Shown here: in pieces, positions 10,100 to 61,878 of the stretch
How positions within the stretch are numbered: position 1 is the first letter of the stretch
Layout: every line of letters begins with the position of its first letter
Source: Eledone cirrhosa
Taxonomy: Eukaryota
Direction of reading: 5' to 3'
DNA length: 64,000 nucleotides
Assembly: GCA_964016885.1 (NCBI GenBank)
Contig: OZ024751.1
Coordinates: 41,354,001-41,418,000 of the forward strand
Translations under genes and position numbers: made by a program
Notes under the pieces: generated by a model
Database searches by the model: none
Told to the model about the DNA's origin: nothing
The model's input: the letters and a program-made list of their open reading frames with translations, nothing else

Positions 10100-10292
10100 T
10101 TATAAATAGTCGAAACAAGATGACTGAGCTCTTGCCATTTCAATAACTAGCTCCAGACTAACTGTTGAAAAAGCAAGAGCTCAGCTGTCAGGTCCCAACT
10201 CTTTATAATATAACCATACTCTACTACCCCAAATATCAAGTACTCTGTTGAGTAATGGTCTAACTAGTTTTAAACTGGTTCTATTTTGAGAT
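10100..10292. mobile_element. Degenerate (TA)n-flanked arm-loop-arm-tail element (family of 31606)
   Basis: GACTGAGCTCTTGC / GCAAGAGCTCAGCTGTC arms plus tail ACTCTACTAC...CAAGTACTCTG, similar to 31606-31803. Confidence 0.65.
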
Positions 10293-10676
10293 ATATATAT
10301 ATATATATATTTGAAAAAAGGAAAAGAATGATTTCACTTGTAGTTCTAAACAATTTAATTTTATAAATATTATAATTTTACAATTTGGTTTTGTAGATCT
10401 AGTAAGTTCTTTGATAACATCGGTGGATTTTTTTAAAGATTCTGGTTAATTTTCTTGGAGAACTTTCTCACATTCATCAGTGGTGCAATTGTCAAACTGA
10501 TCTCAGTATTTATACATTATATGGGAGAGTTAGGAAAATGTTTAAATGGAGGGGAATATTTCAGATTGATGAATATTTTCTGGCAAATGGAAAATACAGA
10601 CTTTGTTTGATGTGGGTGTTATAAATGTACCAATGCCTTATGGTAGAACAAATATCTGAAGAAACGTTTAACTTAC

Positions 10677-10764
10677 CGACCATCATCAGCATGGTAACCA
10701 ACTGAATCAACATTCCAGCCAGGTTGACAGTCTAGAGGATACCGGGAAGGTCCTAGACCAATGG
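10677..10764 (-). CDS. SPRYD3: SPRYD3 coding exon 3
   Basis: (A)IGLGPSRYPLDCQPGWNVDSVGYHADDG(R); cag and gtaagt sites; 88 nt. Confidence 0.95.
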
Positions 10765-10999
10765 CTGGAGAACAAAACAAAACAATATAAATATACAAAC
10801 ACACACACATATATATATACACACACACACACATACACTATATATATATATATATATATATATATATATATATATATATATATATATAACATGAATATGA
10901 TAACATTGCAGTTAGAAGGTCAACTCTCTCTCACATACATATATATATATATATATATATATACACACACACATTATGCATAAAGTGAAAGTTCCTTAC

Positions 11000-11115
11000 C
11001 AGTAGTTCCCTGCAATCCACTGTCTAGGATTTCTACCTCGTAATAGTTTCTGTCTTGTGTGAGAGGATCAGCTGCTATATAAACTCCTACTTTGTCTTCA
11101 TCATTAACTATATAC
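11000..11115 (-). CDS. SPRYD3: SPRYD3 coding exon 2
   Basis: (S)YIVNDEDKVGVYIAADPLTQDRNYYEVEILDSGLQGTT(A); tag and gtaagg sites; 116 nt. Confidence 0.93.
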
Positions 11116-11329
11116 CTAAAGAGACAATTAAAATCACCATCATCATCACCACCATTTTTTTAATACAAACTTGTCCAAGCTGCTTTGGGTTCTATGTAAT
11201 AAAATCAACAATTTTAAAGGGCTCCTATTTAATTTAAAATCTTTCAACATAATTTTATATAACAACTTTATGTTACTATCTTAGTAATGAAATAATAAAT
11301 AATTTTAGTAAATCCTTCAAAATTCTTCA

Positions 11330-11530
11330 TTAACCCTTTAGCATTTACATTACTCTATATATACACAGTAAAGGCTTTATTTCGCATAATTATCTCACAT
11401 AATATCGAATCTATGAGATTTTGATATTATTTATTTTGAGAACAATACCTTAACATCAGTATGGCAGCCAGTTACAGCCGGTTTGAATGGAAAGAGTTGA
11501 GAGAATTCTGGCCAGATTCAGCTGGTTTAA
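11330..11530. mobile_element. piggyBac-like TTAA MITE with one terminus lost
   Basis: Begins TTAA-CCCTTTAGCATT; body matches the reverse complement of the complete copies at 23118 and 47450. Confidence 0.75.
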
Positions 11531-58460: not shown

Positions 58461-58544
58461 CATCATCATAATAATTATTATTATCATTATATGATAGATT
58501 TGTGAGATAATATCAGATAGTGTAGGAGGGATGAAGGTAGAAAT

Positions 58545-59840
58545 ACAGAAAGGTAGGGAGGGCGGTAGGGAGGTAGGTAGGTAGGGAGGTAGGGAGGTAG
58601 GGAGGGAGGTAGGGAGGTAGGGAGGTAGGGAGGTAGGTAGGGAGGTAGGGAGGTAGGGAGGGAGGTAGGGAAGTAGGTAGGTAGGGAGGTAGGTAGGGAG
58701 GGAGGTAGGGAGGTAGGTAGGGCGGTAGGGAGGTAGGGAGGGAGGGAGGTAGGGAGGTAGGGAGGTAGGGAGGGAGGTAGGGAAGTAGGTAGGTAGGTAG
58801 GGAGGTAGGTAGGGAGGTAGGGAGGGAGGTAGGGAAGTAGGTAGGTAGGGAGGGAGGTAGGTAGGTAGGTAGGGAGGGAGGTAGGGAGGTAGGGAGGGAG
58901 GGAGGTAGGTAGGGAGGGAGGTAGGGAGGTAGGGAGGTAGGGAGGGAGGGAGGGAGGGAGGGAGCTAGGGAGGTAGGGAGGTAGGGAGGGAGGTAGGTAG
59001 GTAGGTAGGGAGGGAGGTAGGGAGGTAGGGAGGGAGGTAGGTAGGGAGGGAGGTAGGGAGGGAGGGAGGGAGGTAGGGAGGGAGGTAGGGAGGTAGGTAG
59101 GTAGGTAGGTAGGTAGGGAGGTAGGTAGGTAGGTAGGAAGGGAGGTAGGGAGGTAGGGAGGGAGGTAGGGAGGTAGGGAGGTAGGGAGGGAGGTAGGTAG
59201 GTAGGTAGGGAGGTAGGTAGGTAGGGAGGGAGGTAGGTAGGTAGGTAGGTAGGGAGGGAGGGAGGTAGGTAGGTAGGGAGGTAGGGAGGTAGGTAGGTAG
59301 GGAGGTAGGTAGGTAGGTAGGTAGGTAGGTAGGGAGGTAGGTAGGTAGGTAGGGAGGTAGGGAGGTAGGGATGTAGGTAGGTAGGTAGGGAGGTAGGGAG
59401 GTAGGTAGGGAGGTAGGGAGGTAGGTAGGGAGGTAGGTAGGTAGGTAGGTAGGTAGGTAGGTAGGGAGGTAGGTAGGGAGGTAGGGAGGTAGGGAGGTAG
59501 GTAAGGAGGTAGGGAGGTAGGTAGGTAGGTAGGGAGGTAGGGAGGTAGGTAGGGAGGGAGGTAGGTAGGTAGGGAGGTAGGTAGGTAGGTAGGTAGGGAG
59601 GTAGGGAGGTAGGTAGGGAGGTAGGGAGGTAGGTAGGTAGGTAGGGAGGTAGGGAGGTAGGTAGGTAGGGAGTTAGGGAGGTAGGTAGGGAGGGAGGTAG
59701 GTAGGTCGGAAGTGAGGTAGGGAGGTAGGTAGGAAGTGAGGTAGGGAGGTAGGTAGGGAGGTAGGTAGGAAGTGAGGTAGGAAGGAAGTGAGGTAGGGAG
59801 GTAGGTAGGGAGGTAGGTAGGAAGTGAGGTAGGAAGGAAG
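58545..59840. repeat. (GGTA)n/(GGGA)n G-rich tetranucleotide tract
   Basis: Direct reading. Confidence 0.97.
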
Positions 59841-59844
59841 GACA

Positions 59845-60200
59845 CCCTGCTTTGCAGCACATAATTACGGCCCTTTACGTTCTGATATCAAATTCCGCCG
59901 AGGTTAGCTTCACCTTTCATTCATACGTGGTCAATAAAATAAAGTACCAGTCACGCACTGGGGTCGATTTAATCGACTTTTCCCTCCCCACAAAATTGTT
60001 GGCCTTTTGCCTAAAGTAGAAACCTTAATTGTTTCTACTTTTGGCACAAGGCCAGCAATTACCCAGTGTATGACTGGTACTTTATTTTATCGACCCCGTA
60101 AGAATGAAAGGCAAAGTCAACCTCGGCGGGATTTGAACTCAGATCGTAAAGGGCGGTAACTCTATGCTGGAAAGCATGTTCGACCCTCTACCGATATTGT
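59845..60200. mobile_element. Two SINEs arranged tail-to-tail
   Basis: Plus copy ends CCTAAAGTAGAAAC at about 60023; minus copy begins GTTTCTACTTTTGGCAC at about 60031. Confidence 0.85.
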
Positions 60201-61436
60201 CTAAAGTAGAAACCATTATTGCCATCCAATTAGGGATGCGGATTGGTAGAATTCTTTGAGAGTCTGACAAAAGGGTTTGTGGCATTTAGTAAATCATTCT
60301 TACTTTTTGTCCCGTAAAATCTGAGGGAATTGTAGGGCTGCCATATACGGCTTTTTTGTAGGGAATTTGAACTCAGGGAGCAGAGAGCCAGCATGAATAA
60401 CGTAAAGCATCCTATCCGACGTTCTAACAACTTCGTCAGTTCGCCGCCATAGTAAGTTATTAGAGAATGTTAAAAGATAAATCGAACTAGGAGTTGATTG
60501 GTATCCTATCTTATCAACTTCAGAAAGTTGACAGCAACGAAATTTGAAACACGAACGTAAAGAAGCGAATCAAGAAACGCAGGACATTTTAATCTAACAA
60601 GTCTTAGACGAATGATAAAGAGAAGGATAAAAAAAAAAAATCTGAAGATAAATAAAATGAAGGGAGGGAAGTGCAGTAGAATGAATGTGATAATACTGTG
60701 GACTGGTACATATTAAAATAACAAACATAAACTCAACAAAAGGAAACGAAACGAGATATTCATGGATTACAGAAGTGGAGTTATTGAATTAATATTTAAG
60801 AGGGAAACAGTATCGATATCATACAAAAAAGTGAATGAAAATGCAGATAAGAGAAACCAATGAAAAGTTTTTTTTTTTTTTCTTAAATCAGAGATGTTAG
60901 AAGAAGAAATAAAAGGAAAACAGAAAAATGACTGATCATTATATTAATTGGTTTGACAAGTAAGAACAACTGAACAAGATGGAGGATAACTATATATCAA
61001 TAGCATAAATTGGTAGCGGATTATTATTTTTTTTCTACACTTTAGTATTTCTTTCTTTCAGCAGTCTCTCCCTTTGTACATATGTTTTTTATGCGTTTGT
61101 GTATATATATCTATATCTATATATATATGTATGTATAGTATATTTGGTAATATACTGTATGTTTAGTTAAGTATATTACCAACTATACTATACATACATT
61201 CATGTATACATCGCTATTTCAGAGCACCAATCCTAATATATATATATATATATATATATATATATATATATATATATATATATATATATAATTTATGTAT
61301 ATATAATGTGTATATATATATATATATATAATGTATGTATATATAATGTGTGTATATATATATATATATATACATATATATATATACATATACACACACA
61401 CATATATATATATATATATATATATATATATATATA

Positions 61437-61878
61437 GGATTATCCTAGATGTAGTAATGGTTAATTACTACACTGGATATGGTTGACGTACGGTGAGAGG
61501 TTACTCTACGAGTTATGGAAGAATTGTTGAAGAAACTTAGTTCCTGATCCTTCTGTATTCCGGAGTGTATATAAAGAATGAATAATAACAGGTAGACATC
61601 ATAAAAAGGTAATTTATTCCGTGTGCTTACAAATGTTTCCACGGTGGTACTACAGCCTAGTTATGGTATGTGCAAATTTACAACTATTTGCAAAACTCAA
61701 ATATCCAATGCTGTGACCACTGTTTCCTCACAGCAGCATTGGATATTTGAGTTCTGCAAATACTTGTAAATTTGCACATACCATAACTAGGCTGTAGTAC
61801 CACCGTGGAAACATTTGTAAGCACACGGAATAAATTACCTTTTTATGATGTCTACCTGTTATTATTCATTCTTTATAT
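61437..61878. mobile_element. (TA)n-flanked tail-arm-loop-arm element with about 145-bp arms and a hammerhead 3' half
   Basis: 61569-61713 is nearly the reverse complement of 61734-61878; arm contains GAAA-CATTTG-TA-AGCAC then AATAAA. Confidence 0.8.

Follow-up and report, generated by a model that had tools for sequence, protein, structure and literature searches.

The window analyzed here is a 64-kb stretch (64,000 nucleotides) of the genome of Eledone cirrhosa (assembly GCA_964016885.1, contig OZ024751.1, positions 41,354,001 to 41,418,000 of the forward strand), consisting of animal DNA with 37% G+C and many TA, CA, and longer tandem repeats. Set among its TA microsatellites are short non-coding ends of at least 7 divergent families, most of which combine an inverted repeat with an unpaired tail on one side. 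These inserts are probably truncated or non-autonomous ends of Penelope-like elements (PLEs) of the Hydra type. PLEs are the sister group of telomerase reverse transcriptase (RT). The tails of the inserts carry a predicted bulged hairpin that appears to be undescribed before and that occurs in at least 7 families here and in published consensus sequences from three phyla. How PLEs choose their start sites, how they form inverted pairs with a tail on one side, and how they come to prefer microsatellites have been posed as an open question (PMC8557442) that has been answered only in part (PMC11167929).

We screened the 60-700 bp segments lying between (TA)≥5 runs in the window (n = 22). In all 8 of the two-armed elements named in a preliminary description of this DNA (10100, 13346, 18845, 31606, 42953, 44079, 45122, and 61437), an inverted repeat directly abutted one of the TA runs, and the opposite side bore an unpaired tail, just as that description had held. 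Each had one tail, of 67-137 nt, with arms of 20-140 bp (75-100% identical) and loops of 4-109 nt. A ninth named locus, 54953, had been described as retaining the tail and one arm, and we found a minus-strand tail fused head-to-head with one plus-strand arm and no shared arm. TA runs bound all named loci; on the tail side of 31606, the TA run is followed by a CA repeat. Two further segments fit the asymmetric layout, one unnamed (61129-61236, with a 39-nt tail) and one composed of simple repeat (63454). The proposed distinction from MITEs (transposable elements of the miniature inverted-repeat kind), which are symmetric, was also upheld: none of the 22 segments was a symmetric inverted repeat spanning both TA runs, and a MITE identity was rejected on that count. 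The asymmetric architecture alone is ordinary, since truncated copies that meet head-to-head within (TA)n and bear a tail on one side only have already been published as the signature of PLEs.

Loop orientation was readable in 13346, 18845, 42953, 45122, and 54953 (but not in 10100, 31606, 44079, and 61437), and in all 5 the tail-less arm reached further 5' than the tailed arm. The extension was 52 nt in 18845 and 109 nt in 45122, and the tail-less arms of these two contain the hammerhead motif. At the tail-less junction, the element's own continuation was identical to the TA flank over 2-8 nt in 7 of the 8 named elements.

The arm families had been called unrelated, and arms did differ between families; however, the 9 named loci made up only 6 families, namely A (10100, 31606, and 54953), B (13346 and 44079), C (18845), D (42953), E (45122), and F (61437). 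Identities among family A members were 72.5% (142 nt compared) and 84% (75 nt compared); the two family B members were 91.5% identical over 118 nt. The family B tails agreed at 82 of 90 nt between the two copies. Because tails are common to separate copies of a family, they are part of the element, which answers the objection that they might be unrelated flanking DNA. Arm length varied within families (20 vs. 134 bp in B; 0, 44, and 57 bp plus a solo arm in A), indicating 5' truncation; the 13346 copy is truncated downstream of the hammerhead. The oldest copy is 10100, with arms 75% identical. Units outside the 9 named loci are lettered G to J in Table 1. Neither an inverted repeat nor a hammerhead was found in insert H, for which we infer the same layout as 54953. 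Membership of repeat G in the group is uncertain, as it fails the hairpin descriptor given below. Unit I is possibly a complete short non-autonomous monomer, and J is related to it. Both of these solo hammerhead units (44616-44835 and 19062-19216) have a long stem II, and each adjoins a named element in the same TA tract, which suggests repeated insertion into one microsatellite.

Hammerhead motifs were sought across the window with a simple pattern (CTGANGA-stem-GAAA) and with a full type-I descriptor covering stems I-III. The simple scan yielded 9 candidates among 31 CTGANGA words, 7 of them in TA-flanked units (18845, 19062, 42953, 44079 twice, 44616, and 45122) and 2 elsewhere (9644 and 29209). 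There were 4 exact-core matches to the full descriptor (44079 twice, 18845, and 45122), compared to a mean of 0.01 and a maximum of 1 in 100 block shuffles. Allowing one core mismatch added 6 matches, of which 1 was the 42953 arm with its 8-bp stem I and 5 were outside the elements. The other arm of 42953 has an exact core (43077-43055, minus strand) without the 5' strand of stem I. By descriptor, type-I hammerheads, which are predicted ribozymes, are present in families B, C, D, and E and in units I and J. In family A only a 3' hammerhead half is present, which includes a UC cleavage site and a stem III of 5 bp; the hairpin directly before GAAA, where family A junctions fall, would be stem II, and the arms of 31606 presumably meet within it. 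The ribozyme motifs point toward the element end in each arm, and outward in both arms of 44079 and 42953; the arms are therefore truncated copies joined head-to-head. Family F has a good tail hairpin and only a half-like hammerhead (arm region 61684-61736), and either may come from a different PLE lineage or may no longer have its ribozyme. The candidate at 9644-9671 (plus strand), which immediately precedes a TA-rich run, resembles a hammerhead core and has a stem II of 6 bp, but no stems I and III by the full descriptor; downstream of it is an inverted repeat (9771-9847) related to 55839-55945.

The preliminary description had also proposed that a GAGYRCT-like word is common to the tails, and all 7 tail words that it quoted were found where it had placed them. 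Among the 9 named tails, GAGYRCT was exact in 5, had one mismatch in 3, and had two mismatches in 1 (61437). It was always in the arm-to-tail sense and lay 22-30 nt into the tail in 8 of the 9. The bare word was not enriched in the window (21 matches vs. 17.2 ± 4.4 in shuffles), and with up to one mismatch it was present in 19% of 9,834 background windows of 90 nt and in 12-39% of shuffled tails of at least 67 nt. Thus, the proposal of a shared motif stands for the position and for the hairpin described next, both of which go beyond chance, but not for enrichment of the word itself. In our model, the signal is a bulged hairpin structure rather than a 7-mer.

GAGYRCT is the 3' strand of this predicted hairpin, which has the order RCTC-inner stem-loop-inner stem-TN-GAGY-RCY. 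RCTC, which can pair with GAGY, begins 5-9 nt past the arm end in 8 of 8 measurable tails (7 nt in 5 of them). The 2-nt 3' bulge is always TA, TC, or TT, RCY follows GAGY in 9 of 10 copies, and the sequence of the inner stem differs by family. A strict descriptor matched 6 times in the 64 kb, in tails only and in the sense orientation only, compared to a mean of 0.445 and a maximum of 3 in 200 shuffles; a relaxed descriptor matched 9 times, again in tails only (null mean 3.0). Among the matches was 50533, a unit absent from the preliminary description. When one copy per family was taken (n = 7, with 50533 included and 61129 and 44616 left out for failing the descriptor), inner pairs 1-3 formed in all 21 of 21 cases, and as many as 5 types of pair were seen at a single position. 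Permuted inner-stem partners paired at a mean of 14.1 of 21 (P = 0.00035, post hoc), and slid partners at 4-9 of 21. Across all 10 copies, these pairs formed in 28 of 30 cases. Inner stems therefore change in sequence with pairing kept, G-U pairs included, and an outer A-U pair has become G-C in 18845. These data make it very likely that the hairpin is a selected structure. A MAFFT alignment of the 10 tails, with a mean identity of 43%, left the motif unaligned between families, and the anchored comparison was used instead.

We then turned to published PLEs. Inverted 5'-truncated copies and one-sided tails are general PLE features according to Craig et al. 2021 (PMC8557442), who also describe the Hydra clade as short, hammerhead-bearing, (TA)n-targeting PLEs with a C-terminal endonuclease (EN+), one member of which is from Octopus. 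The hairpin comparison covered Hydra consensus sequences plus Naiad/Chlamys, and the six Hydra consensus sequences in that paper were compared by eye. The hairpin was at the termini of these six in exact form in 3 and near form in 2, and was absent from 1. The 3' ends of Hydra-2_Amil and Hydra-2_Ajap comprise a hammerhead, an AT-rich spacer, and a strict hairpin (GCTC, a 4-5-bp inner stem, a TT or TA bulge, and GAGCACT). Hydra-1_Ajap has two strict hairpins with different inner stems at its 5' start, which fits a tail that is the start of the next unit, and its 3' end terminates in AT-rich sequence with no tail. Near matches were present in Hydra-1_Crog and Hydra-1_Amil. A comparison with full-length PLEs, suggested along with the original proposal, came out in its favor: GAGYRCT was exact near the terminus in 3 of the 6 Hydra-clade consensus sequences and had one mismatch in 2 more. 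This recurrence is an independent test because the word was derived from the window alone; the bulge descriptor is not independent. Six 9-mer forms of the motif occurred 5 times in the 584-kb supplement of PMC8557442, 3 times at Hydra termini and twice inside Naiad elements. The word "hairpin" or "bulge" occurred nowhere in the main text of that paper. We found no description of this tail hairpin in the full-text papers searched, which did not include subscription papers such as Arkhipova 2006 and Evgen'ev and Arkhipova 2005.

Table 1. Inserts, tail hairpins, and hammerhead motifs in the window, in positional order.
Feature	Positions	Strand	Details
Family A insert (10100)	10100..10291	+	tail-less arm 10100-10143 (minus sense, hammerhead 3' half), tailed arm 10165-10208, tail to 10291
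Tail hairpin, 10100	10218..10244	+	degenerate: one outer and one inner mismatch
Family B insert (13346)	13349..13483	-	tail 13349-13438, arms 13439-13458 and 13464-13483, identical 20/20
Tail hairpin, 13346	13409..13431	-	one outer mismatch; loop unlike 44079, inner stem kept
Family C insert (18845)	18847..19049	+	arms 18847-18888 and 18941-18982, tail 18983-19049
Type-I hammerhead motif, family C tail-less copy	18876..18935	-	core without mismatch; 7-bp stem I, 11-bp stem II, GUA site
Tail hairpin, 18845	18989..19012	+	G-C replaces A-U at outer pair
Solo tail-less copy J (unnamed)	19062..19216	+	bounded by TA runs; core of a hammerhead at 19096, with G in the cleavage position
Family A insert (31606)	31601..31804	+	arms 31605-31661 and 31668-31724, then tail
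Tail hairpin, 31606	31730..31756	+	
Solo tail-less family A arm (unnamed)	42860..42914	+	ends at TA-rich run
Family D insert (42953)	42953..43141	-	tail 42953-43019, arms 43020-43078 and 43083-43141
Tail hairpin, 42953	42991..43012	-	
Type-I hammerhead motif, family D tail-less arm	43076..43130	+	one core mismatch, stem I 8 bp
Family B insert (44079)	44083..44489	+	arms 44083-44216 and 44265-44398 (134/134 identical), tail 44399-44489
Mirror hammerhead motif, family B (44079)	44124-44189	-	reflects 44292..44357
Type-I hammerhead motif, family B	44292..44357	+	exact core, stem I 8 bp, palindromic stem III
Tail hairpin, 44079	44406..44428	+	
Unit I (unnamed)	44616..44835	+	between TA runs; hairpin-like motif 44629-44666 ends GAGCACT, 5' of hammerhead
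Hammerhead of unit I	44706-44802	+	exact core, one stem III mismatch
Family E insert (45122)	45126..45442	+	arms 45126-45184 and 45294-45352, tail 45353-45442
Type-I hammerhead motif, family E tail-less copy	45163..45233	-	exact core, stem I 8 bp, palindromic stem III
Tail hairpin, 45122	45360..45387	+	
Insert H (unnamed)	50533..50740	-	between TA runs, minus-strand tail with strict hairpin 50637-50608
Family A insert (54953)	54955..55101	-	tail 54955-55029 (minus) joined to tail-less arm 55030-55101 (plus)
Tail hairpin, 54953	54997..55023	-	
Hammerhead 3' half, family A (54953)	55058-55080	plus-strand arm	5-bp stem III, GUC site
Short asymmetric repeat G (unnamed)	61129..61236	+	28-bp arms, 39-nt tail, GAGCACC at offset 24
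Family F insert (61437)	61437..61873	-	tail 61437-61573, arms 61574-61713 and 61734-61873 (138/140 identical)
Tail hairpin, 61437	61500..61566	-	loop about 48 nt; AAC instead of RCY

The remainder of the window holds other repeats and coding pieces. An open 587-aa non-LTR retrotransposon frame on the plus strand (7365-9128), which we take to be RTE-type from its motifs, has an RVT_1 domain (E 3.5e-32) and an internal PHD finger (E 6e-6), with best relatives 59% identical and matches including Hydractinia, Branchiostoma, and a catfish; a (TGA)n repeat follows its 3' end at 9405. Exon-like pieces of a conserved host gene, presumably SPRY-domain-like, lie on the minus strand at 5731-6036 and 6357-6797; they had no Pfam match, and the first piece had 16 homologs with 55-85% identity. 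Two long open frames on the plus strand, 26384-28825 (through 39-bp and 54-bp minisatellites, with a non-repetitive middle) and 29098-30009 (303 aa), had no Pfam match above cut-off and are possibly exons. An abundant dispersed short repeat family, which we assume to be SINE-like, was present at 14586-14907, 22760-22866, 46113-46911 (a tandem duplication), 52181-52363, 54260-54632, and 59840-60205 (head-to-head at 59848-60176), and ARAGORN found no tRNA in it. A 5.7-kb satellite (31882-37537) mixes units of 29 and 21 bp and shows higher-order periodicity at 79 and 108 bp; its start adjoins sequence that matches the dispersed repeat at 22711, and it was possibly amplified from a SINE head. A repeat of about 400 bp is present in opposite orientations at 50902-51281 and 62795-63212 (87% identical); it adjoins TA-rich runs and had no match to the hammerhead or tail-hairpin descriptors. 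Inverted repeats at 12966-13047 and 53269-53426 have no TA-run flanks and are unrelated to the insert families studied.

Taken together, the hammerhead motifs, the variable 5' truncation, and the agreement with the published tail and inverted-copy structure of PLEs leave little doubt that the inserts are of PLE origin, and they back the earlier suggestion of a cis-signal for a shared RT/endonuclease-type mobilizing machinery, with priming, recognition, or template switching as its proposed function. The PLE traits present here are an inverted 5'-truncated copy (8/8), a one-sided tail (8/8), truncation within families, and a type-I hammerhead. Assignment to the Hydra clade is likely. At the protein level, that clade is marked by its RT/EN phylogeny, by RWK and DKT motifs, and by the lack of CCHH; the loci here contain no protein sequence. 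The named loci are inserted in (TA)n and have a canonical hammerhead near the 3' end, and the 42953 core has the layout given for Hydra-clade hammerheads in File S2 of PMC8557442, with U...U at the base of stem II and an ACAG/CUGU stem III; a 3'-end hammerhead is not diagnostic of Hydra alone, because Neptune, Nematis, and Poseidon share it. We regard it as probable, with somewhat more reserve, that the loci are 5'-truncated head-to-head PLE ends in (TA)n and that the hairpin is the binding site that positions two RT starts.

Several results weigh against this interpretation. Neither a PLE RT nor a GIY-YIG coding remnant was found in the window by pattern scan and by six-frame translation of the arms, so the evidence for the clade is entirely non-coding. 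(We disregarded a QQHWIFEF reading in the 61437 arm because a stop comes after it.) Hydra-1_Obim has the hairpin at neither end of its published consensus, and a 16-nt piece of its hammerhead had no match in the window at 3 mismatches. The window tails, at 67-137 nt, are longer than the 30-40 nt published for PLEs (PMC8557442). A canonical hammerhead core was not found in families F, G, and H, and family A has no 5' half. Rfam returned no hammerhead for the whole window among the 150 of 215 matches listed, which were only microsatellite-driven matches of miRNA type, and none among the matches listed for two sub-regions. Both hairpin descriptors were composed after these tails and the Hydra consensus sequences had been viewed, the 21/21 count used the best copy of families A and B, and the permutation P would be inflated by any common ancestry of the families. 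In folding predictions, the bulged register was the minimum-energy fold in 2 of 6 tails (44079 and 54953); 18845 had the same stem in a different register, 42953 had the outer stem only, and 45122 and 50533 had no outer stem. The structure may therefore need protein. Identity with the TA flank at the tail-less junction of 31606 was 0 nt. In the literature, the Anolis element is reported to initiate without target homology, unlike the UA pairing proposed below (PMC11167929), and inverted junctions have been attributed to self-priming on an antisense template (PMC3846280).

Experimental work on another PLE provides a framework for how such ends could arise. In Frangieh et al. 2024 (PMC11167929), a Poseidon protein from Anolis, for which a dimeric form is predicted, was shown to cut both strands of the target and to extend them. 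It depends on RNA located 3' of the pLTR, and synthesis begins at two internal sites, which delimit the tail. In what follows, the layout, hammerhead motifs, hairpin covariation, spacing, and TA microhomology come from the window itself, two-site initiation on two strands comes from the literature, and docking, priming, and joining are what we infer. An RT-GIY-YIG protein, probably a dimer, would bind a more-than-unit RNA through the hairpin, and both (TA)n strands would be nicked. One 3'-OH would pair with UA-rich sequence lying immediately 5' of the hairpin to give the tail-less arm, and the opposite 3'-OH would start 37-75 nt 3' of the hairpin to give the tail plus arm. Both cDNAs would stop early and be joined at their 3' ends, producing the order arm-loop-inverted arm-tail; in family A, the join would fall in the self-complementary hammerhead stem II. 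Loci 54953 and 50533, in which the tailed copy ends only a few bases away from the first start, would be expected from collision on one RNA, and the solo tail-less copies 19062 and 42860 and the unit with its motif 5' of the hammerhead (44616) could fit the same scheme. On balance, we slightly favor a role for the hairpin as the anchor for initiation. A more ambitious version can be offered only tentatively: a clade-wide hairpin may dock the RT-endonuclease and set both a homology-assisted, telomerase-like start on a UA-rich stretch 5-9 nt upstream and a second start downstream, so that one dimer primes both strands and always leaves one tailed and one tail-less end, and the hairpin may suffice to mobilize unrelated short hammerhead units like 44616-44835.

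The same PLE origin could hold with a different function for the hairpin, as a promoter, a 5'-UTR or translation element, or a DNA site for the endonuclease, in which case its spacing would follow from the unit boundary. In Hydra-1_Ajap the hairpin does come at the very 5' start, ahead of the ORF, a 34-bp Penelope repeat has been predicted to be part of a promoter (PMC2377424), and according to work cited in PMC11167929 the endonuclease reportedly requires the tail to recognize plasmid DNA. However, pairing that is kept despite inner-stem changes, G-U pairs included, points to a single-stranded structure and not a duplex site, and a promoter role leaves unexplained both the 7-nt spacing to the cDNA end and the second cDNA start 37-75 nt downstream; we therefore hold this alternative to be unlikely. 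Fold-back self-priming of one cDNA or of an antisense template, with the same origin and hairpin, seems less likely still as the source of the inverted arm. It concerns only the second start and the joining, is compatible with the hairpin as anchor, and draws on the junction palindromes that Arkhipova et al. 2013 (PMC3846280) reported for inverted pLTRs with a tail and read as self-priming; family A junctions here do fall in a hairpin. Against it, the tail-less arms of 18845 and 45122 exceed the tailed arms by 52 and 109 nt, and 54953 has no shared arm. Fold-back on the tailed cDNA fails because it does not contain this extra 5' sequence, and fold-back on the tail-less cDNA fails because it does not contain the tail.

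Explanations outside PLEs fared worse. Non-autonomous Helentron/DINE-1-like rolling-circle elements, with a 5' terminal repeat, a subterminal inverted copy, and a 3' stem-loop, have the same gross asymmetry and a compensatory stem-loop a few nucleotides past the 3' subterminal repeat (PMC2374699). Their repeats are fixed at 13 bp and their target is TT, whereas the arms here measure 0-140 bp, vary within families, and lie in (TA)n; moreover, the arms contain hammerheads, and the hairpin occurs on Hydra consensus sequences that encode RT/GIY-YIG, whereas DINE-1 and Helentron-associated elements are not known to have a ribozyme, and a DNA-based mechanism is proposed for them. We judge this origin very improbable. 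Scarcely credible is the idea that the motif arose by chance in MITE-like palindromes that are unrelated to one another and whose tails are flanking DNA, or that these are fold-back artifacts of assembly. The lack of enrichment of the bare 7-mer and the frequency of its ≤1-mismatch form in shuffled tails would suit chance, but tails are common to family copies, most elements have substitutions between their arms, and shuffles gave far fewer hairpins and hammerheads than were observed; within the window, this explanation is refuted.

If the proposed initiation is correct, a UA-rich start beside the hairpin would explain the targeting of TA microsatellites, and PLEs would have a defined cis-recognition element whose structure is conserved from corals, sea cucumbers, and copepods to this genome. 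The hairpin is a concrete target for mutagenesis, being 22-30 nt long with a fixed outer stem, a 2-nt bulge, and constant spacing to the cDNA end. Its descriptor could locate Hydra-type element ends without an ORF, and could classify short TA-flanked palindromes that pipelines might file as MITEs or unknown repeats.

Among known systems, animal non-LTR retrozymes resemble these loci as short non-coding PLE-related units with type-I hammerheads (PMC7229834; bioRxiv 10.64898/2026.07.22.740005), and 44616-44835 could be a retrozyme-type monomer. However, retrozymes are head-to-tail tandem repeats, whereas the window loci are inverted pairs or solos, and the tail hairpin was not found in the retrozyme passages available from these two sources. 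No tandem array with a hammerhead was found among the TRF rows listed or the descriptor matches, and a tandem retrozyme was rejected since the TRF rows listed held no head-to-tail hammerhead array. Minimal pLTR hammerheads, including opposite-strand pairs 100-700 bp apart, were reported by Cervera and de la Pena 2014 (PMC4209133). Naiad PLEs, those of Octopus included, share the (TA)n preference, inverted copies, and one-sided tail, but are without canonical hammerheads (PMC8557442), whereas the window has complete motifs in 4 families; the six 9-mer motif forms were not found at Naiad termini by exact matching, which is limited by line breaks. Penelope/Poseidon elements (D. virilis Penelope, Adineta Pen2a, and Anolis PAc) are alike in having an inverted 5'-truncated pLTR with a hammerhead and an optional one-end tail that is the start of the next unit (PMC3846280, PMC11167929, PMC2377424), and they use two internal RT start sites with both target strands extended. 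They differ in that their tails are 30-40 nt and overlap the ORF start, their targets are AT-rich and not (TA)n, and initiation is reported to be in an AC-rich stem-loop without target homology; the GAGYRCT bulged hairpin was not found in the available text on them. The Hydra clade differs from the window loci, which are short and non-coding, have no ORF, and in several cases have a much longer hammerhead stem II. Nevertheless, it shares with them insertion into (TA)n, a type-I hammerhead near the 3' end, and a TA-rich stretch followed by the same bulged hairpin ending in GAGCACT.

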